Source: a virus. Taken from it: a stretch of DNA of 64,000 nucleotides. The notes under the pieces are model-generated. The model was not told the DNA's origin, did no database searches, and saw only the letters and a list, made by a program, of their open reading frames with translations. The stretch is from positions 8,408 through 72,407 of IMG/VR virus record IMGVR_UViG_3300020160_001428; one strand, 5' to 3'. Both the position numbers and the translations under genes were made by a program. Positions 30,603-61,291 of the stretch are shown piece by piece. Numbering within the stretch: the first letter of the stretch is position 1; every line of letters begins with the position of its first letter.

Positions 30603-30618
30603 TTAACCGCTCCGTATT

Positions 30619-34474: not shown

Positions 34475-34489
34475 TATTTATCGTAAATA
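34475..34489. promoter_or_regulatory. Back-to-back divergent late promoters (TATTTA-tcg-TAAATA)
   Basis: Located in the 41 nt gap between divergent genes. Confidence 0.6.
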
Positions 34490-34496
34490 ACATACG

Positions 34497-34985
34497 ATGA
34501 CAGCAAAACCTGTATTAATGATTCATGAGATTACAGATGCAATTTTTAACTTGCCCCTAGCTGATTATCTGCTGACTTTTGATGATGGTACCCAAGATCA
34601 TTGGCAGTATTTTAAGCAAGTACGGGCTATTCCTACAGAAAAAATCTACTTTATCATTACCAATCGTATTGGCACAGCAGGATATCTCAATTTAGAACAA
34701 GTTAAACAGATGAGTTTAGATCCAATGACTACAATTGGTGGGCATAGTCACGATCACATTAGGTTAAACACATTTGACACGCTGGTTGAAAAAGTAGCAT
34801 ATATTAAACAAGACACTGAACAAATGATTAATTGGTTTAATGAGAATTTAGGATACTGTCCTAAAGCATTCTGTTTACCCTATAACGAAGATGCTGGCGG
34901 ACTATATGCCGCGTGGCTGAGAAATAAAGGGATTACTAGTATCTATGCTAGCGAAAGGACTGCCTGTGAGCATATACTTTCCTAA
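34497..34985 (+). CDS. Polysaccharide deacetylase (CE4/NodB-like)
   Basis: LTFDDG, GGHSHDH, LPY. Confidence 0.85.
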   Translation: MTAKPVLMIHEITDAIFNLPLADYLLTFDDGTQDHWQYFKQVRAIPTEKIYFIITNRIGTAGYLNLEQVKQMSLDPMTTIGGHSHDHIRLNTFDTLVEKVAYIKQDTEQMINWFNENLGYCPKAFCLPYNEDAGGLYAAWLRNKGITSIYASERTACEHILS

Positions 34986-35694
34986 TACGCCTGCTACCTT
35001 TATCCATGTTCCAAGGACCGGAGGCACTAGTTTTAAAAGTTGGGCAAAGACTAATATCCTATCTAGTCAAGAGCTACCATTGCCAGATTTTATCCCCAGC
35101 AACACAAATATAATTCCCAATAGACAACATCTCATATCTGTTTGGGGCGACTTGGGAACTGAGTTTGCATTTGTTCGCAATCCCTATGATCGACTAGTTA
35201 GTCTTTATCATTATATGGGTCAATGGGCTGAACAACGATTTGCAGATAACAAAAACAAATTAGCCACCGGTGTTGACTTTGTCAAATCGTTTCCATATCA
35301 AAGTAGTAATGCTATAACTGCTATACAAGATGATAAACGTCTAATTGATTATTATAACTTGGGCTTTGAGAATTGGCTCAACTCTGTGTTCCATAATAGA
35401 GATGATATCTACAGTAAAACTGGGCATGGTACAAGGCATATTATTGATCACTTTTGGCGAGGAGAAACTCAGCTAAGTTGGTTCAATGGTCAACTGCCCG
35501 ATGTCATTATAAAGACTGAAGAACTAAGCAGGCAATTTTATATTATACAAGATTTACTAAATTGCCATGTGCCACTGCCTATAGAAAATAGTAGCAGGCA
35601 CGATCACTATCAAGCATACTATAATTCATCTACAAAAAAACTAGTAGAAACAATATTTGCTGAAGACTTAGCCGCGTTTGAATACAAGTTTTAA
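34966..35694 (+). CDS. Sulfotransferase family 2 protein
   Basis: FIHVPRTGGTS 5'-PSB loop, FVRNPYDRLVSLY, EDLAAFEYKF; GTG start after AAGGA. Confidence 0.85.
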   Translation: MSIYFPNTPATFIHVPRTGGTSFKSWAKTNILSSQELPLPDFIPSNTNIIPNRQHLISVWGDLGTEFAFVRNPYDRLVSLYHYMGQWAEQRFADNKNKLATGVDFVKSFPYQSSNAITAIQDDKRLIDYYNLGFENWLNSVFHNRDDIYSKTGHGTRHIIDHFWRGETQLSWFNGQLPDVIIKTEELSRQFYIIQDLLNCHVPLPIENSSRHDHYQAYYNSSTKKLVETIFAEDLAAFEYKF

Positions 35695-36318
35695 TGCTTC
35701 TGCATTACTGTAGCCAACTTGATATCCCCTATACTTTAATAGTGTCAGCATTGCCTCCACACTACGAGCATCAGGAAACTCGTATGTTTCAGTAACATAT
35801 TTTCTCAGTGCAGTTTCTTTCAGTACCACTATGTCAGCGTTAATTTCTATGTAAGTGTTTGGTTCAAATACTGGTTGTACTTGCGAGAAAGTCCAATCAG
35901 TACTAGATGGCACTTCAAAGAAGTACAATTCATCGACAGTACTAGAGGGTTTAGGGCGACATGCTACCAGTGCGGCTTCTGCTAGTATGCGATGATCTCT
36001 ATTCATGTCACTGATGTTGTGAGTATAGACAGCATTAAACTTTTCCATATCAACTAACTTGGTCACAAACTCCGACATTTCTTTAATGTCTAATGTTAGA
36101 TCGTTATTGTTCCACATCTTCCATTTAGCTCCAGCGGCTTCACAATTCTTAATAAATGTGTCAGTCCTAACTCGACTGACGTCATAGGCATTTGGTCGAT
36201 TGCCGTTGCACATACTGTAGACATGTACGTCATGTCCTTCACGACTTAGCTTTACGATAGTTCCGTAAGGGCCATAGGCTTCGTCGTCAGGGTGAGCTAG
36301 TAGAAATAATATTTTCAT
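35668..36318 (-). CDS. PIG-L/LmbE family N-deacetylase
   Basis: AHPDDE, DMNRDH. Confidence 0.88.
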   Translation of the reverse strand: MKILFLLAHPDDEAYGPYGTIVKLSREGHDVHVYSMCNGNRPNAYDVSRVRTDTFIKNCEAAGAKWKMWNNNDLTLDIKEMSEFVTKLVDMEKFNAVYTHNISDMNRDHRILAEAALVACRPKPSSTVDELYFFEVPSSTDWTFSQVQPVFEPNTYIEINADIVVLKETALRKYVTETYEFPDARSVEAMLTLLKYRGYQVGYSNAEALKLVFKRG

Positions 36319-36983
36319 TGCAATATCCAGTCCATTCCTAATTTTTTATACAGCAATTCAGCAACCATAAAATCTTCTTCATCGTCAATGTCTATGCTTT
36401 CAATTTTACTTAACATAGTAAAATGGGGTTTATTTCCTACTATGTTGCCTGTTGCGGCTAGAAGTTCAGTCTTAATAATACCCACGGCCCAGTTTAATGA
36501 TACAATATTAGGCAACTCTTGACTACGAGGAGTTTTATTACTGTCATAGTTAAGAGACTTGCCATCTTGCCATAAAAACTTCTTTTCAGGACTAACTGAT
36601 ACAACACTATCTATGTTAGGATAATCTGTTTTAATTTTATCAACTGCCGCCTGTAAGGTTGATAATTTCAATAGTGGTTGAACAACTTCTGAGTTTATCA
36701 TAAATTCAGCAGGACATGCCTCAGCTAAATTTTTATAAAATAGATCATTAGATATTTCTCCGGCATAATAAGGATCTCTGTGATGTACACGTATGCCGTG
36801 TGAACCTGCAATCCTAACACATTGTTCACAGTCTGTACTGACTATGATGTCTGATAAGCCGTTTACCTGTTTTAACATTGTTAGTCTAATATCTAATAGA
36901 GTAGTATCAGCAAACGGCTTTGAGTTCTTTGAAGGTACACGCTTAGAGCCTTTTCTTACAGGGACCATTGCAATAATGCTCAT
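36315..36983 (-). CDS. Acylneuraminate cytidylyltransferase (NeuA-like)
   Basis: PVRKGSKRVPSKN, VSTD, SIDIDDEEDF. Confidence 0.88.
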   Translation of the reverse strand: MSIIAMVPVRKGSKRVPSKNSKPFADTTLLDIRLTMLKQVNGLSDIIVSTDCEQCVRIAGSHGIRVHHRDPYYAGEISNDLFYKNLAEACPAEFMINSEVVQPLLKLSTLQAAVDKIKTDYPNIDSVVSVSPEKKFLWQDGKSLNYDSNKTPRSQELPNIVSLNWAVGIIKTELLAATGNIVGNKPHFTMLSKIESIDIDDEEDFMVAELLYKKLGMDWILQ

Positions 36984-37660
36984 AATATTTCCTTTTCTGC
37001 ATCTGCAAACATTGCAGATATTGTATCAAACACTCCGCCAAAGTCATTAATATCATATTCTTTAGGCGGATTATTTTTATTTCCTAATACGGTAATATTA
37101 ATATCTTTATTTTTTAAAATGTAACTGTATGATAACATATCTTCTGCATATTTGTCATATGTATTTTTGTCATTAAATCCAAAACAATTATCAAATACTT
37201 TTGGAAATTTAAGGTATGGTCTTATAATTGCATCAAAAAGATAGCCATGAGAAACAAATTGGCATTCTTTGAATTGCTCTTTGCTAGGAAAATCTATATC
37301 AAGCGTTTTATCCAATGACGTTACTTGGATATCCGATAGCACAAAGTTCCAAGGTTCCGGAGATACTAATAGGGTAGACAGCCAACGTTCTTCTAATGTC
37401 AGTTGTGCTTTGAGAGCTCTGCCAATAAATCGATTGTTTCCTAATTCGATTCGTAGCTGTTGTATTTCTGTAATATTCCATAAGAATAACGGATCATATA
37501 TTTCATGAATATAATAATAAAACATTCCATTTAGGGCTGCCGGCCATGACCTATCTAAGGGCGGATTTATTAAAAACTGTAGTATATTATATTCGTTATA
37601 AGATGACAATGATCTATTTTTTAGAGAGGCAAGGACTTTTGCATTGTAGATATAAATCAT
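36980..37660 (-). CDS. Hypothetical protein
   Basis: 226 aa, ATGA-coupled at both ends. Confidence 0.65.
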   Translation of the reverse strand: MIYIYNAKVLASLKNRSLSSYNEYNILQFLINPPLDRSWPAALNGMFYYYIHEIYDPLFLWNITEIQQLRIELGNNRFIGRALKAQLTLEERWLSTLLVSPEPWNFVLSDIQVTSLDKTLDIDFPSKEQFKECQFVSHGYLFDAIIRPYLKFPKVFDNCFGFNDKNTYDKYAEDMLSYSYILKNKDINITVLGNKNNPPKEYDINDFGGVFDTISAMFADAEKEIL

Positions 37661-38592
37661 AGCATATCTCCAATTATATCATCAAGTGAATGTTTAGGAC
37701 TATAATCAATGGCTGCTTTAATCTTAGTCAAGTCAGGTACACGTTTATAGATATCACCGTGATGTTTACTAAATGCCTGTTCATAAGGCACTAACTGTAT
37801 TTTAGAATTCGAGCCAGATATAGCAATAACACGCTCTGCTAGTTGCTTAATACTGACTGGTTCATCATTACCAATGTTGAACAGCTCTCCGTTTATATCA
37901 GACAGTTTTATTAGAGCATCAACTGCATCACTAACGTGGCAGAAACTACGCACCTGTTCACCTGTACCATATACTATAATATCTTCGTTGTTCTTTGCGG
38001 CTTTGATCATACGGGGTAATACCATACCATAGTCACCTAGCTGTCCAGGGCCTACTACATTAAAGAACCGTACAATGGTAAATGGAAACTCACTAGCACG
38101 TATCATAAACTCTGTTGTCAGCTTGGCACTGGCATATCCCCAACGTAGTTTACTGCTAGGCCCAATGCTGGCATTGGCTTCTTCGTGGAAAGGACCTTCT
38201 CCGTAGATTTCACTTGTGCTAGAAAATGTCACGTGTCTGTTCCGTAGCTTTTGAAACAGGGGAATCATCTTGTTAGCCAGTGCAAGGTTGTTAAACAAAG
38301 TACCACTTGGATCTTTGTCTACATGTTCTACTCCCACACTTCCTGCAAGCATAAAGATTTTATCGTGCTTGCGAGCAATCTTAAGGAATTCATTATCGTC
38401 CATTGTAGTCAAATCAGCCTCAACAAATCTATAAAGATTTTTATGCTGTTTGAATTGTTCTAGACCTTCTTTGTTAGCAGTCTTAAGGTTATCAATAACT
38501 GTAACGCCAACATGACGTTCCTTAGAATCAAAGAGTGCTTTGGTCAGTTGCTGGCCTATGAAGCCCGCGCCTCCCAGAATTAAATAATTCAT
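37657..38592 (-). CDS. NAD-dependent epimerase/dehydratase (extended SDR)
   Basis: GGAGFIG, SSTSEIYG, YASAK, RFFNVVGP. Confidence 0.92.
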   Translation of the reverse strand: MNYLILGGAGFIGQQLTKALFDSKERHVGVTVIDNLKTANKEGLEQFKQHKNLYRFVEADLTTMDDNEFLKIARKHDKIFMLAGSVGVEHVDKDPSGTLFNNLALANKMIPLFQKLRNRHVTFSSTSEIYGEGPFHEEANASIGPSSKLRWGYASAKLTTEFMIRASEFPFTIVRFFNVVGPGQLGDYGMVLPRMIKAAKNNEDIIVYGTGEQVRSFCHVSDAVDALIKLSDINGELFNIGNDEPVSIKQLAERVIAISGSNSKIQLVPYEQAFSKHHGDIYKRVPDLTKIKAAIDYSPKHSLDDIIGDML

Positions 38593-39160
38593 AAATTTGT
38601 CCTAATGTTATTTCCTCAATGGGTATCTGCTTGCAATCTGCCATTGCTTCTACCACATCATCTATGTGTGCAATATAATGCATTTTATCTGGATCAGTTG
38701 GCACATACGCTGTACCGTCTATGCACCTTTGTATAAAACTATCCGAGCTTGCGCCAGGACCGTATACACTAGGTATACGATAATTGATGTAACTAGCTAC
38801 TCCAGCACTATGTTCTAAATAAACTTCCATACATCTCTTAGCTATATTATACGCTGTTTGCGGACCTTTGTCAACTCCTATTAACTTAGCGCCTTGACTA
38901 CTAGCATTAACAAAAAATGCCGTTGGACATACAGCTAGTGCCTTTCGAGTAGCATCCATAATAGTATCCATTACTTCTCTAGGATTACTATTCATGTACT
39001 CAGTTGAACTTGGACAGGCCAAATGATATACCATATCACATTCTATTTGTTTAAAGGAGCGGTCGATAGGATATACTATATGTCCTCGACGAACTAGACT
39101 TTCAACTAATCTAGTTCCAATAAATCCTGTTGCTCCCGTTACTGCTACTTTCCTTACCAT
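38528..39160 (-). CDS. NAD-dependent epimerase/dehydratase (short)
   Basis: TGATGFIG, YHLA, YNIAK, VYGP. Confidence 0.8.
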   Translation of the reverse strand: MVRKVAVTGATGFIGTRLVESLVRRGHIVYPIDRSFKQIECDMVYHLACPSSTEYMNSNPREVMDTIMDATRKALAVCPTAFFVNASSQGAKLIGVDKGPQTAYNIAKRCMEVYLEHSAGVASYINYRIPSVYGPGASSDSFIQRCIDGTAYVPTDPDKMHYIAHIDDVVEAMADCKQIPIEEITLGQIYELFNSGRRGLHRPATDQSTL

Positions 39161-39624
39161 GGTGCGTTATCCCATCCTAATCTTATAAATCTAACTCCAG
39201 TGTCCTGTAATCCATATTTGATTGTTCTAATAAATGAACGCCCTGTCTCTGGGGTAAACAAAGGAATGTCTAAGGCATTAGTGAGCAAGTTATCATCGTC
39301 AACTAAGTGCCCGCGACCGCAGATACTATAACAACCATTGTGCCCAGCATTAACAAAGATAATACTACCGTTATGTTCTGCCCAACCTTTAATATTGAGT
39401 TTGATTTGTTCGTATGCTTTATACAATACAAAGCCCGCAACTCCGTATATTATAACACGCTTTCCTTGACTTGCAAGGCCTGCCGCTATGTTAACCATAT
39501 TAGGTTCTTGTACGCCGCAGTTGATTATTTTATAGTTGCCGTCAGTCCACTTCCACATGTCTGCATGTAGAAAGTAAACTTCTCCTGGATAACGATTTAA
39601 AAATTTATGTAAAGTTGCTCTCAT
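39154..39624 (-). CDS. Transketolase pyrimidine-binding domain (stand-alone)
   Basis: INCGVQEPNMVNIAAGLA, YEQIK, FIRL. Confidence 0.8.
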   Translation of the reverse strand: MRATLHKFLNRYPGEVYFLHADMWKWTDGNYKIINCGVQEPNMVNIAAGLASQGKRVIIYGVAGFVLYKAYEQIKLNIKGWAEHNGSIIFVNAGHNGCYSICGRGHLVDDDNLLTNALDIPLFTPETGRSFIRTIKYGLQDTGVRFIRLGWDNAPW

Positions 39625-40885
39625 CTTCTAACCATTTATAGTATAGCGTTCCTCTGTGTATGTCAATTAGTTCTTGTGGGTTTACTGTGTCAGCTGGTCG
39701 AGCTACATCATCTCTAAAGCCAGATAATACATAATCCCACGCTTCCGCTGGAAATATATCAATTTCTTTACGATCCTCTACAGGGACGGTTTTGTAATGA
39801 TTCCAGTAGTCGTTGTCTCGTTTAGAATATTTGTAGTGGGCAATGATAAAATTCATTACGGAATCAAATTCATCATTTGTCTCTGCATTGTATTCATCTT
39901 CTTCAAGTGTGCCATTAATATATGCTGTTAATCTTTTTAGTGCAGAAGTTACCAAATATAATCCAGTTGATTCGATCGGCTCAATGAACGCAGACGCTAG
40001 TCCAATGGCAACTATATTATCTTTCAAGTGTATTTTGTTTCTGCCTGTAGTCATTGAAACAGATCCAATTTGATGCGGTTCTACAGTAATATGAAACTTA
40101 TCCTGTGCATACTTAATAAAATCATCCAATACATCGTATTTGCTGTCATGTACATATCCAATAGCTAGCTCAGTACCTAACGGAATATTCCATATCCAAC
40201 CATGCGGCATTGCTTTGAATATACTATATGGTTTACATTGCATTTCTTTATCAGTATATGCGTGTCTAAAGACCAATGCACGATTGTTTGGTATTTTATC
40301 TGCAATACTTACAAAGTTATCCGGCCATGAGGCTACATATCTCCCAAAACCAGTGCTATCAATAAGAAGATCACATGTTCCTTCTACATCTTTTAAAGTT
40401 ACAAATTTGCGTATAATTGTTAAATTAGGAATACTAGGCGCTAGTGTATCCATATAGGCTAACAGTTCAGTGGCTCTAAAATGCACAGAAATATCTTTGT
40501 ATTCTAAAATATTATCGGGTATCTTATCAGTTGCTATTATCTTATCTATACTTGAACTGTTGTACCTGTCAGTCTGTCCTACTCCAAACGGAAATGTAAA
40601 ACTTTCTCCGTTTTGATTAAAGTCTTGAAACTTAATTCCAAGTTTAAGTGTGCCATTACAGTGATTAATAACATCCTTGTGAGAGATGCCAAGATCGTTT
40701 AGAAATTGACTTACGTCTGGTATAAGAGCTTCACCAACCCCTATAGGTTTGTTCTCTTCGGGATATATCCAAGTAATTTCTTTGTCAGGATATTGCTTTG
40801 ACAAATAGAATGCTGTTAGGTATCCTGAAGTTCCTGCACCAACGATTGTAATTCGGTTAATGTTTCTATCTTTTTGTAATGCCAT
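39605..40885 (-). CDS. Flavin-dependent tryptophan halogenase-like protein
   Basis: VGAGTSG, IGVGEA, LKLGIKF, DSTGF, GWIWNIPL, IGLASAFIEPIESTG. Confidence 0.88.
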   Translation of the reverse strand: MALQKDRNINRITIVGAGTSGYLTAFYLSKQYPDKEITWIYPEENKPIGVGEALIPDVSQFLNDLGISHKDVINHCNGTLKLGIKFQDFNQNGESFTFPFGVGQTDRYNSSSIDKIIATDKIPDNILEYKDISVHFRATELLAYMDTLAPSIPNLTIIRKFVTLKDVEGTCDLLIDSTGFGRYVASWPDNFVSIADKIPNNRALVFRHAYTDKEMQCKPYSIFKAMPHGWIWNIPLGTELAIGYVHDSKYDVLDDFIKYAQDKFHITVEPHQIGSVSMTTGRNKIHLKDNIVAIGLASAFIEPIESTGLYLVTSALKRLTAYINGTLEEDEYNAETNDEFDSVMNFIIAHYKYSKRDNDYWNHYKTVPVEDRKEIDIFPAEAWDYVLSGFRDDVARPADTVNPQELIDIHRGTLYYKWLEDESNFT

Positions 40886-41532
40886 TTTTTAATATCCTGT
40901 TGTATACTAGTAACTCCGTGTCCTTTATGCGTATGAAAAATATACACATTAGGCACTGTATCTACAGCATTGTTATATGCTGTTAAAATCTTTGTCCTAT
41001 CATGTCCATCTACTTCTTGCACAAACCAGCTGTATTCTTTAAAGAACTGAATAGTAGGTTTAATTTTTAAAACGTCACTGACGTTTCCCGTAACTTGTGC
41101 ATTGTTATAATCAATAGTTAAGAATATATTCTTAATATTATGATGCCCGATAAACTGGATAGCTTCTAAGGTATTACCCATTTGTAGTGCGGCGTCGCTA
41201 ATGTTGACCCACACACGCTTATCTGTAGTCATAGCAATACCAATGGCAACACCGAGTGCATTGCCCATTGTTTCTTCACCATAGTCTACAAATACAATTT
41301 CATCGTGTTTGACTCCTACACTTAGGTCTTCGATCTTATCTAAGAAGCCTAATTTCTGCCATACTAGATAGTATAACTGTGCTCCAAATGGTTTGCCTAT
41401 TACAATATGATCTTTGTAAGGTACAACAATCTGTTCTGTGAACAATACATCAACATAGTCAAGCATACTCATAGCACTGGCGATATGACTTAGGCCATTT
41501 TGATAAGAATATTCAAGTAGCTGACGTTTCAT
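40816..41532 (-). CDS. Transketolase N-terminal (TPP-binding) subunit
   Basis: SHIASAMS, MGNALGVAIG, SDAALQMG...IDYN, VDGHD, THKGHGV. Confidence 0.8.
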   Translation of the reverse strand: MKRQLLEYSYQNGLSHIASAMSMLDYVDVLFTEQIVVPYKDHIVIGKPFGAQLYYLVWQKLGFLDKIEDLSVGVKHDEIVFVDYGEETMGNALGVAIGIAMTTDKRVWVNISDAALQMGNTLEAIQFIGHHNIKNIFLTIDYNNAQVTGNVSDVLKIKPTIQFFKEYSWFVQEVDGHDRTKILTAYNNAVDTVPNVYIFHTHKGHGVTSIQQDIKKWHYKKIETLTELQSLVQELQDT

Positions 41533-43189: not shown

Positions 43190-43207
43190 TTATATTATCC
43201 TTGTGCT

Positions 43208-43236
43208 ATTGTAAACTATTTGCAGTTAATTGTCAA
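43208..43236 (-). promoter_or_regulatory. Sigma70-type promoter TTGACA-N17-TACAAT
   Basis: Internal promoter for the distal half of the island. Confidence 0.7.
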
Positions 43237-44865: not shown

Positions 44866-44872
44866 TTGTTTC

Positions 44873-50722: not shown

Positions 50723-50727
50723 GATTA

Positions 50728-51780: not shown

Positions 51781-51782
51781 AG

Positions 51783-52193
51783 TTATCTCCTTAAATAGTC
51801 TTGTATAACGGCGTTGACTGCATTATCATCATTATAATCAGTTAACATTTGAAGTTGATTTATTACAGAAGAATATTCATTTTTATTCTTCTCAATTTCT
51901 TTAATATTATCTTTTAATGTAAGATATTTTTCAAGATTGTTAATTAAATTCTCATCGCCTGTTTCAATAATTTTAATATAACACTCTTCTTTGTTACTAT
52001 CAGTAATGATAATTCCTTTACTGATAAATTCATTGTTTAATAACATAAAAGAAACAAAGTCAACTAATGTAAACGATAATAAATTATCTCCCATAATACC
52101 GCGTACTTTGGTTTTGACTGCTTTCGCGGCTTTACCTGCATAGGTACTAGCATCAATTCCTTCTACTTCTTCATAATTAGTGATTTCTTTCAT
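51783..52193 (-). CDS. Hypothetical protein (cluster accessory)
   Basis: 136 aa directly after the S74 ORF. Confidence 0.7.
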   Translation of the reverse strand: MKEITNYEEVEGIDASTYAGKAAKAVKTKVRGIMGDNLLSFTLVDFVSFMLLNNEFISKGIIITDSNKEECYIKIIETGDENLINNLEKYLTLKDNIKEIEKNKNEYSSVINQLQMLTDYNDDNAVNAVIQDYLRR

Positions 52194-52443
52194 TTTTTAA
52201 CCTTTCAATTTCGTCAGATAATTCTTGTACTGCTTTGATCAATGGAAAAATTAACTGATGCGGATTAGCTACAATAAAGTATCCGTCTCGATCTTTTTCT
52301 AAAATAGTGTATTTTTCTATTGGCCAAATTTCATTTATATTCTGTGCCATACAGCTCATAGTTTTTCTTACTGTATCACCTTTAGTGTTGTCAGTATATA
52401 TATGCTCTGCAGGTCTTAGCTGTTTTATTTTCTCTAAACTCAT
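52177..52443 (-). CDS. Stand-alone C-terminal part of an S74 (intramolecular chaperone) domain
   Basis: LEKIKQLRP...MAQNINEIWP...LIFPLIKAVQELSDEIERLK; TAATG overlap with upstream gene. Confidence 0.75.
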   Translation of the reverse strand: MSLEKIKQLRPAEHIYTDNTKGDTVRKTMSCMAQNINEIWPIEKYTILEKDRDGYFIVANPHQLIFPLIKAVQELSDEIERLKNERNH

Positions 52444-53087
52444 TACATATACTCAATTTCAGTTTTAACTTGTTCATCGCTATAGTTGCAATTACAGGTA
52501 CATGAGTAATTGCAGTTACAGGTGCAGTAGTTGCAGTTACATGTGCAATAGTTGCAGTTACAGGTGCAGGCGATCCTAGAGTCATTAATTTGATTTACTA
52601 AGGAATTTATATGAACAGCTCTAATCTTTGATCCAACTAATGCGGCAAATGATGTTGCATTGCTAACTGCGGGCACCTGTGGATAGGTTATAGTTTCCGG
52701 TTGTGGGACTGGACCATATACTGGTATCTGGTTGCCAGTCGGGTTTCCGTAAGGATCAAGTTCTGGAGTATAGCCAACTACTACTTGCCCGTTAGGACTA
52801 TTGATATTCTGGTTAGCTCCATTTTGTGCTGTTGTTGCCGCTGGTCCTGCAACGCTTACAGCAGTAATAATAGTGTCTAGGCGGGCCGCTGAAACTGTTC
52901 CCGAGTAATAGCCGGCAGGTATAACGATATTAGATTGGCCTCTTCGAACTCTTTCATTGATTGCAGCCTGAAAAATGCCAGCCATGGCTGAGCCACTAAT
53001 AGTAGTGCTAGTTCCAACGTAGCCGCCGATGTACCCTAGAGCATTTGATGCGTTGGTTCCGTAAACGTTTGCAACTAAACTTGCCAT
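52443..53087 (-). CDS. Cys-rich repeat protein 3 (candidate radical SAM substrate) with S74 cleavage stub
   Basis: Ends CTCNCNYCTCNCNYCTCNCNYSCTCNCNY-SDEQVKTEIEYM. Confidence 0.85.
   Translation of the reverse strand: MASLVANVYGTNASNALGYIGGYVGTSTTISGSAMAGIFQAAINERVRRGQSNIVIPAGYYSGTVSAARLDTIITAVSVAGPAATTAQNGANQNINSPNGQVVVGYTPELDPYGNPTGNQIPVYGPVPQPETITYPQVPAVSNATSFAALVGSKIRAVHINSLVNQINDSRIACTCNCNYCTCNCNYCTCNCNYSCTCNCNYSDEQVKTEIEYM
52482..52568 (-). repeat. 21-nt tandem repeat encoding (CTCNCNY)x4
   Basis: Four units with synonymous variation. Confidence 0.95.
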
Positions 53088-53093
53088 TTATAA

Positions 53094-53927
53094 CTACTCC
53101 ACCTCAAAATTAATTGGTAATTTTGAGTAGTTAACAAAATAGTATCCGTCTAGGTCTTTACCTAGAGCACATTCGTATTTGGTGCCTTGTAGTTCTTGAG
53201 CCATTACTCCACGATAGCGAGTCGATTTATCTTTGATATAGTTCCAAGAATAAACATTTAAATTATTTTCAACTTTAATAAATTTGATATTTTCTTTTAA
53301 TCTTATATCACTACCATAATTACAATTACAGGTACATGCATAATTGCAGTTACAGGTGCAGTAGTTGCAATTACAGGTGCAGTAGTTGCAATTACAGGTG
53401 CATACAGCGCCGGCAGAATTAATAGCACTAATTAGTGTATTAATATCTACAGAACTTATCCGTTGGTCTTTACTGAACGATGTTCCAACTGACGGCGCCG
53501 GTGATTGTGGATAGGTTATTACTTCTGGAGTAGGTACTGCGGCGTATGTTGGGGTTGAACCAACTACATTTCCGTAACCGTCAAGGATCGGAGTTGAACC
53601 TGTTTGTACTACTCCGTTAGAACTATTGATATTCTGATTAGCTCCGTTATATGCTTGACTGGCCGCTGGGCCGGCCTGCTGAACTGTTGTAATAATCTCT
53701 TGAACCCTAGCCCCTAATATTTTTCCACTAAAATAACTTGCCGGAAGTTGAATTGCTGAGCCGCCGCGGCGACTTCTTTCTGCAATGGCTTTATTTGCTA
53801 TATCAACTAATTTGTTTTCTCGCATTACGTCAGTAGATAACACGCCGGCCAGGTTATGAGTTACGGCATTAGTGGCATTAGTTCCGTATATACTTTTAGT
53901 CAGTCCCGAAAAAGTTGGTAATGCCAT
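53094..53927 (-). CDS. Cys-rich repeat protein 2 with fused S74 chaperone domain
   Basis: (CTCNCNY)x4-G-SDIRLKENI...YSWNY...GVMAQE...VNYSKL. Confidence 0.88.
   Translation of the reverse strand: MALPTFSGLTKSIYGTNATNAVTHNLAGVLSTDVMRENKLVDIANKAIAERSRRGGSAIQLPASYFSGKILGARVQEIITTVQQAGPAASQAYNGANQNINSSNGVVQTGSTPILDGYGNVVGSTPTYAAVPTPEVITYPQSPAPSVGTSFSKDQRISSVDINTLISAINSAGAVCTCNCNYCTCNCNYCTCNCNYACTCNCNYGSDIRLKENIKFIKVENNLNVYSWNYIKDKSTRYRGVMAQELQGTKYECALGKDLDGYYFVNYSKLPINFEVE
53316..53402 (-). repeat. 21-nt tandem repeat encoding (CTCNCNY)x4
   Basis: Four units. Confidence 0.95.
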
Positions 53928-54500
53928 TTACATGTACTCCACTTGACTTTTAAGTTGTTCATCGCTATAGTTGCAGTTACAGGTACATGAGTAATTGCAG
54001 TTACAGGTGCAGTAGTTGCAATTACAGGTGCAGTAGTTGCAGTTACAGGTACATACAGCACCAGCAGTATTAATTTCTGTAATTAGTGCATTGACAATAG
54101 CACTAGTTATTCTTTGGCCGGCTATAAAGTTTCCTGAGCCGCTAGGAACTGCTACTTGACCGTAAGTAGTTATTGCTGGAGGATTGCCACTATTAGCGCC
54201 ACCTCCATAATTGGTATTGTATGCTTGACTAGTTGCGGGTCCTGCAATTTCTACATTAGTTTTAATTTCTTGAATTTTGCTTGCAAATAATCTACCAGTA
54301 TAATAATTAGAAGGAATAGCAATTGCCGAACCACCGCGACGTGTTCTTTCTGAAATAGCTTTTTGTGCTATATTGTAAAATATTCCGCCAGACATCTTAT
54401 TTGTGTTATTGACTTGTGTAAGTCCATGAGATACTGAATCGCTGGCGTCAGTACCGTAGATGTCTTTTACTAATCCCGATGTTATATTTGGTAACGCCAT
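53928..54500 (-). CDS. Cys-rich repeat protein 1 with S74 cleavage stub
   Basis: Ends (CTCNCNY)x4-SDEQLKSQVEYM; AAGGAGA/GGAG RBS. Confidence 0.85.
   Translation of the reverse strand: MALPNITSGLVKDIYGTDASDSVSHGLTQVNNTNKMSGGIFYNIAQKAISERTRRGGSAIAIPSNYYTGRLFASKIQEIKTNVEIAGPATSQAYNTNYGGGANSGNPPAITTYGQVAVPSGSGNFIAGQRITSAIVNALITEINTAGAVCTCNCNYCTCNCNYCTCNCNYSCTCNCNYSDEQLKSQVEYM
53967..54053 (-). repeat. 21-nt tandem repeat encoding (CTCNCNY)x4
   Basis: Four units. Confidence 0.95.
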
Positions 54501-54512
54501 CGCTCCGTCTCC

Positions 54513-54911
54513 TTAAATTGCTTTTGATAAAAAGTCTAAATCTTCTTTAGCTTTATTCTGTGCTAGAAATTTGTCATAGTCGTCAAGATCAGCAGTTGAT
54601 GTAATAAAATCTAGTGTGTTCTTATCAACCTCCTTGTCTGGCATTTCTTGATTTTCATTCATATCTTTGATAATCTGCATGACTAAATCAGTTAACGATA
54701 TACCTAAAATAGAAGTGACCATTTCTATTTGTTTAGAAATATCAACAGTTTCAACTGGTTCAGTTCTTTCAGACATTTCTTTGATAATGTTCATAGATAG
54801 AATAAATCCATCTAGCATAATTGTAGAAACTCCTGGTTCATCTTCAACTTCCATAAGGTTGATAATCTCTAGGATTTTTTCTAATTTTTCGTTTATTGTC
54901 ATCTGAGTCAT
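54513..54911 (-). CDS. Acidic helical hypothetical protein
   Basis: 132 aa, ATGA-coupled to the rSAM gene. Confidence 0.7.
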   Translation of the reverse strand: MTQMTINEKLEKILEIINLMEVEDEPGVSTIMLDGFILSMNIIKEMSERTEPVETVDISKQIEMVTSILGISLTDLVMQIIKDMNENQEMPDKEVDKNTLDFITSTADLDDYDKFLAQNKAKEDLDFLSKAI

Positions 54912-55780
54912 TTTATTTCTTTGTCCTTAAAATCATGAAATTTTGGAGAGTTTTCGTAGTTACCGTAGGTCGTTACATTACCCTCGTTAGTAAAATATGT
55001 CTTCAATTCTTTGCGTTCACCACAACCATTGCACATGTCGCAAAACAATTCGCATACAGGTACAGATACTGCTTTATTTATCCAGTCATTTCTAAGCTGA
55101 TTTTTAATCTCGGTTAGCTTTTCGATGTCCTTTGGGGTTAGTGTATCCCAGGCCACACTAGTGATCATGCGCTCTGGATTAAAAGTTTTTATCAATTTGG
55201 TCATGTCTTTATACACATGGTTGATATTAAACTTATGTATGGTATAACGCATACGATATCTAAACTTGTTTTTTACTAGATTAGTAAAGACTTCAATCAT
55301 ACTTCTAGTACTGTCCATACCATTATGATATACCCGATCCTTGTTGCCAATTCCGTCAAAGCTAACATCTATTGATAACAGTCCCTTTTTATAAAAGAAG
55401 TTGTTCATTGTTTCATCAATAAAGTTTTGACTTAGGTATTTGATACCGTTGGTTGTCATGTTAAAATGTACATTACGTTTCTTACTAAAGGCATAGTCCA
55501 TAGCAAAGCAGACGTTCTCCCATTCTAGCGTAGGTTCGCCGCCAAACAATACAATTAGTGTTTGGCTTTTAGGATCTTCTCTAGCAAGTATTGCATCTAC
55601 ATGGTTGACAATATCTTCTTTGGTTAGTATCTGTGGCGGTCGGCCTGGTAAGTCTTCGTAACAATACGTGCAGGCTAGATTGCATTTATTAGTAAAGTAT
55701 AGAACGTTAACAGCCGAACCTACAGGGGCAGGTTTGTCTGTCTTATCTCCTACAAAAAAATCACTAACAATTGGTATCAT
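54908..55780 (-). CDS. Radical SAM protein with short Cys-rich tail
   Basis: CNLACTYC, FGGEPTL, TTNG, SFDG; CELFCDMCNGC. Confidence 0.92.
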   Translation of the reverse strand: MIPIVSDFFVGDKTDKPAPVGSAVNVLYFTNKCNLACTYCYEDLPGRPPQILTKEDIVNHVDAILAREDPKSQTLIVLFGGEPTLEWENVCFAMDYAFSKKRNVHFNMTTNGIKYLSQNFIDETMNNFFYKKGLLSIDVSFDGIGNKDRVYHNGMDSTRSMIEVFTNLVKNKFRYRMRYTIHKFNINHVYKDMTKLIKTFNPERMITSVAWDTLTPKDIEKLTEIKNQLRNDWINKAVSVPVCELFCDMCNGCGERKELKTYFTNEGNVTTYGNYENSPKFHDFKDKEIK

Positions 55781-56070
55781 TGAATAATCATCTCATGCGA
55801 GTTTTTATATCTATTTTCTTGTGGACGACTTTTGGCTTCTTTAATAATGTGACTCATACTAGATAAGAATTGTCCATAGTCAAATTTATAGTCGTATAAG
55901 TGTCCGCGATTAAGATCGTCATAGCCAACGTATTGGCTGTCTACTTTTGCTTTGCCTTTACGGGCTTCTTCAATTTGCAGTGACAATTCATCTACAGACA
56001 ACACACGATCTGAAACGTGCTCTACTGGAGCCATCTCAACTTTAACTGGAATCTTTAAAATGCTTTTCAT
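55777..56070 (-). CDS. Small hypothetical protein between rSAM genes
   Basis: 97 aa, translationally coupled on both sides. Confidence 0.7.
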   Translation of the reverse strand: MKSILKIPVKVEMAPVEHVSDRVLSVDELSLQIEEARKGKAKVDSQYVGYDDLNRGHLYDYKFDYGQFLSSMSHIIKEAKSRPQENRYKNSHEMIIQ

Positions 56071-57194
56071 TAGTTTCTACACTCCACACCTTCATTTTCT
56101 ACACCCACGTTTTGTAAGTAGTGTAGAATTAGATCTTGAAATACTGGAACATCTTTACATTCTTCTACAACACGCATGGCCTGTTCGTTAGTGATGTGAA
56201 AGATTTCGCAGATGCTGTCTAGGGGTTTGTTGCCGTTGGTAACTTGACTGTATGTACAGCCTGCATTACAAACTTGTTTTAATTGGCAAGGCTCGCACTT
56301 ATTAAAGTTTTGTGGATTGAAAATGTCTTGATAATAGTTGAAGTCATATTCACTGTCCATCTTCATAATCTTTTTACTAGCAAAGCGAGCACACGGATAG
56401 AACTCACCACTACTCATTAATACTCCGCCATGAGTACCAGCAAAGCAACCAAATGGTCTCTTACCTTTAACTAGACCGTATAAGATGTCTAGGATAGACA
56501 AACGTAGGAAGCCAACTGAACAAGGTATGCCTGCTTTTAGTTTGGCAATATAGCAGTCAGTTAATCTGATAAGTTCTCTACGAAAATCATGTAGGTCATC
56601 TTCTGTCCATACATCATCACGCACAATAGAAAAGTCAGGATGTTCAATGCCCCAACTTAACAAGAACTCGAAGTTCTCAGTCATGTCTTTGGTATTCCCA
56701 GGCCATATCATTACCTTACAGCCGTTGGTTAGATCTGTAATGATGTCCTTCTTGTGGTTATACATGTCAAGGATGCCATCAAACAACTCTCCAGTCTCTG
56801 GATTAGTGTTTTCTAACAATGGCAGTAAAGGACGAGTAGTATTAGAACTCATGCCGTCAAACGACCAGCTGACTCCTACTCCGTGTTCTTTTAGATACTT
56901 GGCTTTGTCTGCATCAATCATTGTTAGGTTAGTAATAATGTTAATGCCTTTGCATCTTGGATCGGCTGTTAGCTTAGGCACAGCATAGGTAATTAGATCC
57001 CAATTGAGCAATGGCTCACCACCAAAGAAGCTGACATGAAACTCGCTGTCATTACTGCGCTTCATTAGATTATACAGCTCTGGCATAGCATTATCAAACG
57101 TCTCAGGTTCCATCCATGTAGGACGGTTGGCCACGTAACAATATGGGCACCCAAGGTTACATTTTTCAGTTACTGATATCTCTAGTGTAAACAT
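56070..57194 (-). CDS. Radical SAM/SPASM protein (peptide/protein maturase type)
   Basis: CNLGCPYC, FFGGEPLL; CFAG...YPC...CEPCQLKQVCNAGC...IC. Confidence 0.93.
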   Translation of the reverse strand: MFTLEISVTEKCNLGCPYCYVANRPTWMEPETFDNAMPELYNLMKRSNDSEFHVSFFGGEPLLNWDLITYAVPKLTADPRCKGINIITNLTMIDADKAKYLKEHGVGVSWSFDGMSSNTTRPLLPLLENTNPETGELFDGILDMYNHKKDIITDLTNGCKVMIWPGNTKDMTENFEFLLSWGIEHPDFSIVRDDVWTEDDLHDFRRELIRLTDCYIAKLKAGIPCSVGFLRLSILDILYGLVKGKRPFGCFAGTHGGVLMSSGEFYPCARFASKKIMKMDSEYDFNYYQDIFNPQNFNKCEPCQLKQVCNAGCTYSQVTNGNKPLDSICEIFHITNEQAMRVVEECKDVPVFQDLILHYLQNVGVENEGVECRN

Positions 57195-57195
57195 A

Positions 57196-58302
57196 TTAGA
57201 CTGTACATTGCTCCGCTTTAATAACGATAGTTGGTTTCTTGTATGTCTTTAGAGCAGTACGTAGAGCATGGTGTACAATCTCGTTTGACTTAAAGACTTT
57301 ACATACTTGCCAATTGGCAGTATGGTCACTCCACTTTTCCAAGTAAGTATCTTTCTCTGACTTTTCGTATGTGGCCGCATTACACTTCATACAGAATTGT
57401 GCATCGCAACTCATGCAGTCAAGTGGTTGATTCTTTAGTGCGTCTTTGTACATTGCTGTCTTTTCTGCAATGAGTGCATCGATGTCTGGTGCCTTAAGAA
57501 TATTGCCCATAACGTGTGCATGACTTTCTTTGTACATACAACCGTGGCATGGACTAATGTCGCCGTTAAGGTCAACCGATACATAGTTAATACCAGATGC
57601 ACATAGGGCACGGCTTTGAGTGAACCAACCAAACTTTTCTGGAGGTAGTTTGTTTAGATAAATGTATTTGGCAATCTTAGCAAGTCCTTCATTAAGTACT
57701 GCTAGTCTAGGCATAAACTCTTCTTCAGTTAAATGACTATACATGTCCGGTGTTGGAAAATAGTTCTCATCAAACTGTAACACATCAAGGAACGCTTCGT
57801 AGATTAAGTGGAAGTGTTCAGCAGTTAATACTGATTTCATTTTAACAGCTAGGCCTGCTTGTTTTGCCGCAAGGTAGTTTGATTTAACTAAACTTGAACT
57901 TGGGTTACCTGTCTTATCTATACGTGTGATATCGTTTACTGGCTTGCCGTCATAGCTAACCTGTATCTTCAGCCTACCTGGCATTGCTTGATGAAAGCGC
58001 ACTAGCTCTTTCATATATTTCTTTAGATACACACCATTGGTATAAAAGAAAAAGTTGTAGTTAGGATTGTCAATGTACTTTTCCATCACGCCACGGCAGA
58101 ATTCCCAATTTACAAACGGCTCGCCGCCCCAAAAGTAAATATCTCTCTTTGGGTCTTTAAACTTGCCCATAAACTCTTCAATGTTCTCTAAGGTCACAGA
58201 AGTATTTTCTTCGTAGGCTGTTGAAAGCCCGCATTCAAATCCTTCTGAGCAATAGGTACATGCTAGATTGCAGGTACTGGTTACGTTTAAGTCAATTACC
58301 AT
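57196..58302 (-). CDS. Radical SAM/SPASM protein
   Basis: CNLACTYC, WGGEPF; CASG...PCHGC...CMSC..FCMKC...VC. Confidence 0.93.
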   Translation of the reverse strand: MVIDLNVTSTCNLACTYCSEGFECGLSTAYEENTSVTLENIEEFMGKFKDPKRDIYFWGGEPFVNWEFCRGVMEKYIDNPNYNFFFYTNGVYLKKYMKELVRFHQAMPGRLKIQVSYDGKPVNDITRIDKTGNPSSSLVKSNYLAAKQAGLAVKMKSVLTAEHFHLIYEAFLDVLQFDENYFPTPDMYSHLTEEEFMPRLAVLNEGLAKIAKYIYLNKLPPEKFGWFTQSRALCASGINYVSVDLNGDISPCHGCMYKESHAHVMGNILKAPDIDALIAEKTAMYKDALKNQPLDCMSCDAQFCMKCNAATYEKSEKDTYLEKWSDHTANWQVCKVFKSNEIVHHALRTALKTYKKPTIVIKAEQCTV

Positions 58303-59045
58303 TATCTTTCCTTAATGTTTCTATATTTGTTATTCAATTCTATCACTGTGTTTAATAGTGGTAGCTCGTATGTACTAGCTAACGCTTTGATATCTTTTGG
58401 CAAGCAAGGGCCGCCAAATCCTCTTTGGCCGTCGGGTCCTGGAACTTGGAAATGATGTGAGCCCATCCACGGATGTTCTGACAATATCTTTGCTACTGTA
58501 TCCCATTCAACACCTACTTCTTGAGCAACATCAAACATCTGATTCATAAATGTAACCTTTAAAGCATAAAAGCTGTTCATAGTGTATTTAACCATACTTG
58601 CCGTAGCAATATCAGTAATGAAAACCTTGTTTAAATCAACGGTAGAATACCGTTTGTAAACATTAACGAGCTCGTTAGCACGTTTACCGCCTATTAAAAC
58701 CATTGGTGGTTTGACAAAGTCTTCTAGGCTAGTGGCCCTAGAAAGAAACTCTGGATTGTAAACAACATCAAATACTTCAAGGTATTGAGGAAGTATTGTA
58801 CTTTTGACAACTGTTATGCCTGAATATTGTTCATTCTTAATATCTGCAAGAACACGTTTAAGTATAGCATAGTTTGTATCGTCTGTTGGAGTAGGCACAC
58901 AGACAAATATAGCGTCTGGGTTTGCGGCCACAACTTCTTTAACTGACACTGTATTATACTGTGGGTCTGAAATGATACAGGGTGTTTTAGAGAACCCATA
59001 TTCTACGGCCTTACCTACCATGCCATATCCGATTATTCCAATCAT
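58302..59045 (-). CDS. UDP-glucose/GDP-mannose dehydrogenase family (short phage form)
   Basis: GYGMVG, CVPTP, KST, NPEFL, GFGGPCLPKD; lacks the C-terminal domain. Confidence 0.88.
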   Translation of the reverse strand: MIGIIGYGMVGKAVEYGFSKTPCIISDPQYNTVSVKEVVAANPDAIFVCVPTPTDDTNYAILKRVLADIKNEQYSGITVVKSTILPQYLEVFDVVYNPEFLSRATSLEDFVKPPMVLIGGKRANELVNVYKRYSTVDLNKVFITDIATASMVKYTMNSFYALKVTFMNQMFDVAQEVGVEWDTVAKILSEHPWMGSHHFQVPGPDGQRGFGGPCLPKDIKALASTYELPLLNTVIELNNKYRNIKER

Positions 59046-59065
59046 GTTATTATCCTAATTGTGTA

Positions 59066-59094
59066 AGTCTACAGTAATTTTGTCAGTTTGTCAA
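59066..59094 (-). promoter_or_regulatory. Sigma70-type promoter TTGACA-N17-TAGACT heading the rSAM operon
   Basis: 17 nt spacer, 20 nt upstream of ATG 59045. Confidence 0.65.
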
Positions 59095-59112
59095 ATCTTT
59101 TGATTAGGCGAA

Positions 59113-59126
59113 TATTTATGTAAATA
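59113..59126. promoter_or_regulatory. Back-to-back divergent late promoters (TATTTA-tg-TAAATA)
   Basis: Between the rSAM operon and hemA. Confidence 0.6.
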
Positions 59127-59133
59127 AACTACT

Positions 59134-61256: not shown

Positions 61257-61291
61257 GTTAAAACTCAAGTTAAGTTATACTATATTTACGT

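Follow-up and report, generated by a model that had tools for sequence, protein, structure and literature searches.

The 64,000-nucleotide window analyzed here (positions 8,408 to 72,407 of the IMG/VR virus record IMGVR_UViG_3300020160_001428, one strand) carries a 24.5 kb island (34497-59045 of the window) in which three paralogous fibre-like proteins with a C-terminal Cys heptad repeat, CTCNCNY, are encoded just downstream of three radical S-adenosylmethionine (rSAM) enzymes related to the PapB family of ranthipeptide maturases. We lean, by a small measure, towards the view that the island is a maturation pathway whose rSAM enzymes modify fibre proteins of the virion. An earlier note on this DNA had proposed a pathway that decorates virion proteins with crosslinks and an unusual glycan rather than one that makes a secreted metabolite; the comparative evidence favours this proposal, with the reservation that the sugar end of the island is variable. 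The parts are all of known kinds (rSAM/SPASM maturases, S74-chaperoned fibres and nucleotide-sugar enzymes) and it is their combination that we found undescribed: our literature search yielded no paper in which rSAM enzymes are linked to a fibre protein with Cys repeats, nor one describing such a fibre.

The three repeat proteins are encoded in a row on the minus strand (52443-54500): protein A (190 aa, 53928-54500, phrog_26958), protein B (277 aa, 53094-53927, tail-fibre PHROGs) and protein C (214 aa, 52443-53087). According to their translations, each one ends with CTCNCNY-CTCNCNY-CTCNCNY-x-CTCNCNY, directly followed by SD-x-[RQ]-x-K, a cleavage-type motif of S74 chaperones; in protein A, three heptads, a Ser and a fourth heptad precede SDEQLKSQVEYM. 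The heptads of the three paralogues are encoded by three 21-bp tandem DNA arrays (at 53968-54050 for A and 52483-52569 for C) and their copy number may therefore change by slippage. The earlier note had counted these Cys-repeat proteins, which the underlying arrays show to be real, but did not single out the invariant heptad with its S74 site. S74 domains fold trimeric phage fibres or spikes and then cleave themselves off. Protein B belongs to this family, since its C-terminal domain matches PF13884 above the cut-off (31.7 versus 22 bits) and opens with a Ser-Asp motif of the cleavage type, GSDIRLK, immediately behind the last heptad. Of S74, only SDEQxK remains in proteins A and C, and protein C is followed by a stand-alone S74-type C-terminal piece (88 aa, 52177-52443, minus strand) whose start overlaps the stop of protein C and which matches a tail-fibre profile (phrog_1980, positions 344-429 of 449, E = 8.9e-5) and, under the cut-off, PF13884 (E = 0.0085). 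Because S74 domains cleave themselves off, the heptad array would be the C-terminus of the mature chain. A homotrimer prediction for protein B (three copies, alignment A1) scored 0.01 against a mark of 0.42 and was used neither way.

Of 2091 candidates, 696 belong to the family of protein B (E ≤ 0.001), and all of these are unnamed. In an alignment of 24 sequences (members 42-83% identical to protein B), almost all Cys, Asn and Tyr residues in the four heptads are invariant and, in most members here and in the loci described below, SD-x-[RQ]-x-K directly follows the last heptad. The family also shares a conserved upstream helix and an ERxRRG motif; a search for longer fused forms yielded six proteins, none with Pfam domains. 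A tblastn search with protein B against deposited phages returned four records, in which the S74 part alone was matched. A pattern scan of IMG/VR identified 46 viral loci, and a scan of prokaryotes (one genome per species, 185,579 species) identified seven heptad loci, all on contigs of metagenome-assembled genomes (MAGs), four of them under 16 kb. As far as can be judged from these sequence surveys, the heptad family is essentially viral. The repeat proteins of the 53 loci (46 viral and seven MAG-borne) were clustered at 90% identity into 34 groups, leaving out two loci (L039 and L040) that have fewer than three heptads by the pattern, though they carry enzymes. The heptad consensus over the 53 loci is C-T-C-[N/D/Q]-C-N-Y, with an optional one-residue spacer and 3 to 28 copies. 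Of the 331 heptads counted, 244 have T at position 2 and 292 have N at position 6, and position 4 is occupied by N (154), D (139) or Q (26); the remaining positions (1, 3, 5 and 7) were set by the search pattern itself. Variation of the arrays was noted in L014, L017, L033, L034-L037, L041 and L042: the heptad reads CPCNCNF in L042 and CICDCNH in L034-L037, and L014 has its heptads in two or three separate arrays. The repeat proteins reach 542-835 aa in relatives, and there are three paralogues in the window, four in L001 and one in most relatives.

The three enzymes encoded upstream of the repeat genes, all on the minus strand, are in gene order the 368 type (57196-58302; PF04055 47.4 bits), the 374 type (56070-57194) and the 290 type (54908-55780; PF04055 50.6 bits). 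PapB (NF047865) is the top-scoring family for all of them, with 64.5 bits for the 368 type, 130 bits for the PapB/CteB-like 374 type (model positions 5-319 of 330) and 86.7 bits for the 290 type; these scores lie below the cut-off of 340 bits and, on this sequence basis, the enzymes are relatives of the PapB family, not members of it. The 374 type has a SPASM motif, C300-x2-C-x5-C-x3-C313 (C300, C303, C309, C313), plus C250, C268 and C329; the 368 type matches the SPASM model TIGR04085 (30.7 bits versus a cut-off of 27) and has its CX3CX2C motif at residue 11; the 290 type has a single C-terminal four-Cys cluster motif (Cys 243, 247, 250 and 253). The C-terminal auxiliary-cluster Cys residues of SPASM/twitch enzymes are therefore present in the 374 and 368 types and in part in the 290 type. 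Other NCBIfam matches of the 374 type are CcpM (71 bits), QhpD (70.6 bits) and the SCIFF maturase (63.5 bits). Its best PDB chain is 5wgg, which we take to be the SCIFF maturase CteB (chain residues 101-431, E = 7.4e-13); since the alignment starts only at chain residue 101, the 374 type lacks the N-terminal recognition domain. Two small conserved proteins are encoded among these genes, (i) a 97-aa protein between two of the maturases (55777-56070, minus strand), with a homologue at the same position in 21 of the 46 viral loci, and (ii) an acidic 132-aa protein directly upstream of the repeat proteins (54513-54911, minus strand), with a homologue in 19; neither has a Pfam, PHROG or NCBIfam match.

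Enzymes and repeat proteins occur together across the loci. A SPASM-type rSAM homologue lies within the locus in 29 of the 34 groups, at most 1.1 kb from the repeat gene in 27, and in six of the seven MAG-borne loci; in distant loci, the 368 type is directly upstream of the repeat gene (0-46 nt). Among the 46 viral loci, homologues (phmmer, E ≤ 1e-5) of the 290, 368 and 374 types were found in 39, 39 and 36 loci, respectively, and homologues of an all-helical 136-aa partner encoded after the repeat genes (51783-52193, minus strand; model with a predicted local distance difference test (pLDDT) of 90.9, and a fold search without PDB match at E ≤ 0.001) in 32. What distant lineages keep is a minimal module: the repeat protein, its helical partner and two or three enzymes of the SPASM type. 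In 11 groups (L001, L002, L003/4, L005, L006, L007, L008/9, L016, L019, L025-32 and partly L024), the whole core is found in the order of the window: a short dehydrogenase, the 368 type, the 374 type, the 97-aa protein, the 290 type, the 132-aa protein, the repeat protein(s) and the helical partner, then unk350, unk293, rSAM329, a family 2 glycosyltransferase (GT2), rSAM302, rSAM249, a U32-like protein and rSAM361. The core genes therefore do not occur independently of one another in relatives, a point on which the earlier note had made its proposal depend, and the same set, sugar genes included, was found in the Campylobacter phage CPt10 (see below). The minimal module is also present on short contigs binned to archaeal or bacterial MAGs (L047, L049 (Thermoplasmata), L048 and L050-L053); these contigs are probably viral or proviral, in which case phages of widely different hosts may share the module.

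A FastTree phylogeny computed from 142 rSAM sequences recovers the 374 type as one clade with 26 members (support 0.997), and the 290 and 368 types as clades that are nearly pure but weakly supported at depth (0.17 and 0.47). The fact that three distinct SPASM-type enzymes are co-inherited suggests three non-redundant steps on the repeat, and it may be speculated that the three enzymes are matched to the three Cys positions of the heptad. Going by these associations, the SPASM-type rSAM enzymes probably have the repeat as their substrate. A location of the repeat proteins in the virion, which the earlier note had assumed for the targets of the pathway, is likewise probable: S74 is found on or after these proteins, and their relatives lie in tail-fibre modules.

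Three of the loci belong to Campylobacter group II phages, whose 542-aa repeat protein has seven heptad units C-[L/T]-C-[D/N]-C-N-Y (six by a stricter pattern). Among 50,697 deposited phage records, the CPt10 repeat protein matches 15 Campylobacter records from ten phages; the phages named with the repeat protein are CP220, CPt10, CP20, CP21, IBB_35, F379, CJLB-12, CJLB-13, CJLB-14, CC_R7 and WX1. In the same set of 50,697 records, the only strong matches of the 374 type are in 15 records of these phages (36.6-36.9% identity, E ≤ 3e-66). Four short gut-phage fragments (22.5-26.1% identity to the 374 type) were treated as unrelated rSAM enzymes, none of the four having an open reading frame (ORF) with the heptad. 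The CPt10 record (98% complete) was searched for homologues by an ORF scan, which found the gene set spread over 175 kb, with genes tens of kb apart: (i) the helical partner, the short dehydrogenase and the 374 type at 13.6-18.9 kb, the dehydrogenase being about 1.5 kb upstream of the 374 type, (ii) the N half of a transketolase at 69.7 kb, (iii) the 290 type at 84.6 kb, (iv) unk293 at 122.7 kb, (v) a strong rSAM329 orthologue (267 bits) at 140138-141172, (vi) a short-chain dehydrogenase/reductase (SDR), a PIG-L deacetylase and a carbohydrate esterase family 4 (CE4) deacetylase, adjacent to each other, at 143.9-146.0 kb, and (vii) the C half of the transketolase and, immediately downstream of it, the repeat gene (159.4-161.7 kb), with the 368 type at 164.0 kb. 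The U32-like profile has no match in CPt10. This scattered co-occurrence indicates that the gene set, sugar genes included, travels together where synteny is lost. The rSAM-rich Campylobacter group II phages (CP220, CPt10 and IBB_35; Firehammervirus) thus resemble the window by their 374, 290, 368 and 329 rSAM orthologues, helical partner, unk293, short dehydrogenase, both transketolase halves, SDR, PIG-L, CE4 and repeat protein, but their genes do not form one operon, and their repeat protein differs from those of the window by its size, a further Cys-rich C-terminal part and the lack of an S74 domain. In CP220, the repeat gene lies between tail tube/sheath genes and a gp63-like "tail fiber attachment catalyst" gene.

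The available portion of the article of Timms et al. 2010 (PMC2853527) reports 11 and 12 rSAM genes of unknown role in Campylobacter phages and mentions a 21-bp repeat in CPT_0180 without comment, and that of Carvalho et al. 2012 (PMC3322345) gives radical SAM, polysaccharide deacetylase, LmbE-like and UDP-glucose dehydrogenase genes as unusual. Similarly, a marine T4-like genome with 12 rSAM genes appears in the part available of Nishimura et al. 2017 (PMC5332604), and a cyanophage paper merely lists an rSAM gene under "antibiotic synthesis". If our interpretation is correct, it would explain the 11-12 rSAM genes of the Campylobacter group II phages, a puzzle open since 2010, and provide a role for a large part of the rSAM genes that are so far unexplained in several phage lineages. 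Since the Campylobacter phages are cultivable (they are in development for poultry biocontrol), the hypothesis is directly testable.

Several observations speak against a fibre-maturation pathway. The scores of the enzymes are far below the curated cut-offs of the maturase families, so that their chemistry is not assignable by homology. An N-terminal recognition domain (RiPP recognition element, RRE, where RiPP stands for a ribosomally synthesized peptide that is post-translationally modified) is absent from all three enzymes, whose rSAM motif begins at residues 11-33, nor was such a domain found in trans, the 97- and 132-aa neighbours being without family match. The repeat genes of the window lie 18 kb from its fibre-like genes, and the 11 CP220 virion bands reported in the portion available of Timms et al. 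2010 (PMC2853527) do not include CPT_0180. The far sugar end of the island varies among the 46 viral loci. Five of the 34 groups (L012/13, L020, L033, L042/43 and L050) show no rSAM gene in the locus; L020 ends at a contig edge upstream, L033 has full 10 kb flanks on both sides, and five viral records from three of these groups, which are 7-33% complete, carry no rSAM gene anywhere. Finally, metal binding, or disulfide formation after release, could be the role of alternating Cys residues in a trimeric beta-structure. A fibre role is supported by the context of the repeat gene in L012, L033 and L042, where it comes after giant collagen-like tail-fibre genes or is surrounded by S74-type C-termini of fibre proteins.

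The last of these objections can be extended to a reading, unlikely in our opinion, in which the Cys heptads are self-sufficient and form a trimeric beta-helix holding a metal or Fe-S-like cluster or extracellular disulfides, the rSAM enzymes acting on a sugar, a cofactor or DNA. The strict C-x-C-x-C alternation does suit a beta-strand with one Cys face, for which HxH fibres and insect antifreeze beta-helices with internal Cys ladders are precedents, and the change of Tyr to His at position 7 in L034-L037 agrees with it, as do the five groups devoid of rSAM genes and above all L033 with its flanks. However, the adjacency of a maturase in 27 of the 34 groups and the non-syntenic co-occurrence in Campylobacter phages are difficult to understand without a direct functional link, the rSAM-less records are largely incomplete, and the families closest to the enzymes act on Cys-containing peptides or proteins. 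Among known fibres, the T4 gp37 tip binds metal through HxH repeats. The repeat proteins of the window resemble such metal-binding tips by their short repeat, in which ligand-type residues alternate and which would form the C-terminus of the mature chain, and the S74 fibres and spikes of the endosialidase type by the PF13884 domain of protein B and the cleavage-type motif directly after the repeat; they differ from both by the Cys-based repeat and the dedicated rSAM genes.

Comparison with ranthipeptide/SCIFF maturation (PapB, CteB) provides the closest enzymatic parallel for a maturation of fibres. The likeness resides in PapB as top family, in the full CX2CX5CX3C motif of the 374 type and in an adjacent candidate substrate gene with repeated Cys beside Asp/Asn/Thr; the thioether acceptor residues are Asp for PapB, Asn for NxxcB and Thr for CteB. 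The island differs by its sub-cut-off scores, by the lack of RRE, protease and exporter, by being encoded by a phage, by a fibre-like candidate "precursor" of 190-277 aa (up to 835 aa) with S74, and by having three enzymes per substrate. These differences bear on a second alternative, namely that the repeat proteins are not virion parts and that a RiPP-like product (such as a metal chelator, a toxin or an anti-defence factor) is released from them, with their N-terminal 150-175 residues as a leader and S74 only as a self-cleaving follower. Maturases beside a Cys-rich C-terminal core, together with the upstream helix and ERxRRG, recall long-leader precursors, and so does the row of paralogous "precursors" (three in the window, four in L001). 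A short precursor with a leader protease or exporter is nevertheless not what was found among the 34 proteins of the island region scanned with Pfam, and the conserved core likewise contains neither; S74 is a fibre or spike chaperone, relatives lie within tail-fibre modules, and proteins with up to 28 repeats and 542-835 aa are unlike diffusible peptides. We consider a released product very improbable. In agreement with the earlier note, which had seen no exporter or stand-alone protease, no transporter family was detected at E ≤ 0.01 in these 34 proteins, nor any protease family except for a sub-threshold U32 similarity. A precedent for rSAM stapling of a folded functional protein instead of a natural-product peptide exists in the QhpD-QhpC pair: QhpD is an rSAM/SPASM enzyme that makes Cys-Asp/Glu thioether bridges within a quinohemoprotein amine dehydrogenase subunit. 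The three enzymes score 70.6, 57.3 and 50.3 bits with the QhpD model TIGR03906, all under its 453-bit cut-off, and QhpC, unlike the heptad proteins, is non-repetitive, non-trimeric and non-viral.

For the maturation of fibres, we propose the following mechanism. The three paralogues would be small trimeric fibre subunits, folded by an S74-type chaperone (fused in B, split off after C) that would then cleave itself, leaving the (CTCNCNY)4 array at the C-terminal end of the mature fibre, which is the distal end in known S74-chaperoned fibres. The 368, 374 and 290 types, with their auxiliary Fe-S clusters, would act on the repeat in the reducing cytoplasm, before or during assembly, and join the Cys sulfur to a carbon of a neighbouring Asn/Asp, Thr or Tyr. 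Since the close families form thioethers and their acceptor residues are conserved in the heptad, a thioether would be the most likely linkage; judged from this resemblance of sequence families, the chance that thioether chemistry operates here falls just short of even. Such non-reducible bridges would yield a covalently stapled rod at the tip, where disulfides cannot serve in a reducing cell. The five other rSAM enzymes, the U32-like protein, the GT2, the glycosyltransferase-like protein, the short dehydrogenase and the sugar end may build and attach a modified sugar, probably on the same proteins. In glycocins, a GT2 S-glycosylates Cys, and S-glycosylation of Cys by the GT2 of the island is one possibility. 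Glycosylation of the fibres is altogether more doubtful than the preceding steps. The most complete version, with up to three thioethers per heptad and possible S- or O-linked sugars on a redox-proof rod, the whole island being a fibre-maturation factory, can be put forward only tentatively. If true, viruses would use RiPP-type radical chemistry for the maturation of structural proteins, a chemistry not confined to bacteria and their small peptides; a large family of metagenomic "hypothetical" proteins would receive a function, and the invariant heptad with its three matched enzymes would be an attractive source of new crosslinking biocatalysts.

Concerning the other enzymes of the island, the eight CxxxCxxC rSAM enzymes claimed by the earlier note were all recovered: eight of the 34 proteins match PF04055 above its cut-off of 29.5 bits (34.6-63.9 bits; genes at 42104-43189, 44873-45622, 45612-46520, 46508-47449, 48089-49078, 54908-55780, 56070-57194 and 57196-58302), all eight have CX3CX2C near the N-terminus (residues 11-52), and the whole 72.4 kb record contains no more. 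The five that remain besides the PapB relatives have no SPASM match: the 329 type (48089-49078, minus strand; PF04055 63.9 bits; HxsC 69 bits, under cut-off), three consecutive enzymes of 313, 302 and 249 aa (44873-47449, minus strand; PF04055 37.7, 34.6 and 38.3 bits) and the 361 type, which together with an unknown 280-aa protein occupies 42104-44068 (minus strand; PF04055 40.6 bits for the 361 type). In the rSAM phylogeny, these five non-SPASM types have their own clades with supports of at least 0.97, including rSAM329 (clade of 14) and rSAM361 (clade of 8), both with 1.0, and the 313-, 302- and 249-aa enzymes with 0.97-1.0 each.

Among the other products of the conserved core, the U32-like TIM-barrel protein (44065-44865, minus strand) has a fold model with a pLDDT of 81.3 whose best PDB match, the U32 peptidase 5d88, is moderate (E = 1.4e-4; TM score 0.55-0.58), and a mean column identity of 57% over 14 sequences, with Cys 38, 176 and 180 conserved. 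The protein of the window stays under the cut-off of Peptidase U32 (PF01136, 14.3 versus 22.4 bits), and the family is matched below threshold in 10 of the 14 members (best E = 7.4e-4); the U32 likeness claimed earlier is thus weakly supported. Two paralogous unknowns of 350 and 265 aa (49925-51780, minus strand) are 29% identical to each other; they may be sulfotransferase-like, a weak lead drawn from an atlas score of 0.80 to viral Sulfotransfer_3 clusters that is within the chance range, and the 14 members of the unk350 family have no Pfam match. The conserved 293-aa protein unk293 (49059-49940, minus strand; phrog_24441), with a homologue in 25 of the 46 viral loci, could be glycosyltransferase-like (atlas score of 0.91 to glycosyltransferase clusters, a lead only); a Pfam scan of all its family members found nothing shared. 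Profile searches with four conserved unknowns against PDB sequences gave nothing meaningful. The GT2 has 222 aa (47430-48098, minus strand; PF00535 36 bits). The first gene of the operon encodes a short UDP-sugar dehydrogenase-like protein of 247 aa (58302-59045, minus strand; PF00984 65.1 bits, PF03721 40.2 bits), with the N-terminal and central domains and without the C-terminal one (TIGR03026 129.5 bits versus a cut-off of 189.8). The UDP-sugar dehydrogenase predicted from the letters is therefore present, in a short form.

In the 46 viral loci, homologues of the GT2 and of the U32-like protein occur in 20 loci each, of the short dehydrogenase in 18 (at the same position), of the 280-aa protein in five, of the N and C halves of the transketolase in six and five, of one SDR (SDR311) in four, of CE4 in three, of the halogenase in two and of PIG-L in one, and none were found for the cytidylyltransferase and Sulfotransfer_2 proteins. 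SDR, CE4, PIG-L or transketolase N genes adjoin the cassette in L006-L011, L019, L024, L039-L041 and L045. This distribution could mean that the minimal module alone serves the fibre and that the other rSAM enzymes, the U32-like protein, the glycosyltransferases and the sugar genes form a separate pathway, such as DNA hypermodification or the remodelling of host surface sugars. Distant loci (L010, L011, L018, L021, L034 and L045-L049) keep the minimal module only, and the far sugar end is almost absent from relatives. Firehammervirus DNA contains a 7-deazaguanine derivative, and the CP220 annotation includes a QueE-like rSAM enzyme. In CPt10, a cluster of five rSAM genes (73874-79426) has weak similarity (15-49 bits) to the non-SPASM rSAM enzymes of the window, and the authors of CP220 regard the five-rSAM cluster as an interchangeable module, according to the portion available of their article (PMC2853527). 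Conversely, rSAM329, unk293, the dehydrogenase, the transketolase halves, SDR, PIG-L and CE4 accompany the minimal module in CPt10, L024, L041 and L045 join both sets in differing orders, and no nucleotide- or base-modifying family exceeds its curated cut-off in the 34 proteins, the QueE-like scores being about 24-27 versus 260 bits. Such a division of the island into two pathways is in our view unlikely, and a single fibre-maturation pathway is preferred.

The variable sugar-nucleotide end (35668-42107, minus strand, Pfam) encodes a Rossmann-like protein of 192 aa, the N half of a transketolase, a halogenase, the C half of the transketolase, two SDRs, an unknown 226-aa protein, a cytidylyltransferase of the CMP-sugar type (CTP_transf_3; PseF 63.4 versus 205.7 bits) and a PIG-L deacetylase. 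Next to it, two convergent plus-strand ORFs (34497-35694) encode a CE4 polysaccharide deacetylase (PF01522 35.3 bits) and a Sulfotransfer_2 protein (PF03567 30.9 bits). Pfam thereby confirmed the halogenase, split transketolase, NeuA-like (CTP_transf_3), PIG-L, CE4 and GT2 assignments of the earlier note. Two of its three SDRs are supported by Pfam and the third (the Rossmann-like ORF at 41529-42107) was recognized by eye alone; of its sulfotransferase(s), the Sulfotransfer_2 gene holds. A nonulosonic-acid pathway was rejected, since only the cytidylyltransferase is present and no synthase family (NeuB/PseI) was detected among the 34 proteins, which leaves the route to a CMP-nonulosonate incomplete.

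Flavin-dependent halogenases are characterized by the motifs GxGxxG and WxWxIP, and a viral member, VirX1, is encoded by a cyanophage. The halogenase of the window (39605-40885) belongs to this class, with a Trp_halogenase match (PF04820, 229.8 versus 21 bits), GAGTSG at residue 16 and WIWNIP at residue 230. It shares the PF04820 membership and both motifs with VirX1 and differs by its context, within a split transketolase in a sugar/rSAM operon, and by its presence in merely two of the 46 related loci. Its gene is inserted between the N and C halves of the transketolase (39154-41532, minus strand); in L008/L009, the N half is likewise followed by a halogenase gene, while in L006 and L019 it is directly followed by the C half.

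The source record is linear and viral, with 72,407 bases and a completeness estimate of 21%, which indicates a fragment of a very large phage. The island comprises 33 genes, close to the 30 or so tightly coupled genes counted earlier; besides the two convergent ORFs, 31 form one minus-strand block (from 59045 down to 35668) in which adjacent genes either overlap (by 1-70 nt) or leave a gap of no more than 36 nt. The middle of the island had looked AT-richer by eye, and the computed GC content agrees: 0.364 in the island versus 0.416 in the rest of the window, with a minimum of 0.321 at 49-51 kb. The phrase "next to the tail-fibre genes" was loose, as the fibre-like structural genes outside the island (28020-34162) abut its sugar end only. 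Near-identical DNA was found in four freshwater metagenome runs of one study, one of these runs being perhaps the source of the record, and a second study has a relative about 93% identical in one run; no RNA data set is listed for the stretch. In the first study, contigs of three other runs cover 41000-52521 and 54003-59362 with 0-2 differences, their only breaks being at the repeat paralogues (52500-54010); the island is therefore neither a chimera nor an assembly artefact. One contig from another study joins 52724 to 53865, which may reflect either a mis-join or a variant that has fewer paralogues. A megablast search of the whole island against deposited phages gave no match.

Outside the island, the window encodes DnaK, a class Ia ribonucleotide reductase, a PAAR/lysozyme-like baseplate protein, an HNH endonuclease and a 5-aminolevulinate synthase. 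The synthase, a phage-borne haem-precursor gene (59134-60324, plus strand), is full-length (TIGR01821 572 bits versus a cut-off of 338.6) and divergent from the island; a homologue is found at the same position in L001-L004, and none was found by the ORF scan of CPt10. A tetrapyrrole link of the island through this gene was rejected, since the NirJ/AhbD-like scores of rSAM329 (about 48-56 bits versus cut-offs of 500-650) were read as generic rSAM similarity. The DnaK (Hsp70; 316-2187, minus strand) shares about 70% identity with bacterial DnaK present in some deposited records and 51-58% with its counterparts in huge uncultured phages. The products of the fibre-like genes that abut the sugar end (33254-34162 and 28020-33254, both minus strand) include a lectin-type Laminin_G_3 domain (87.3 bits) and an 860-aa protein that matches head-decoration and tail-fibre PHROGs. 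A staphylococcal-nuclease-like gene (26097-26537, minus strand) and the HNH endonuclease gene (60744-61268, minus strand) bracket the wider region.

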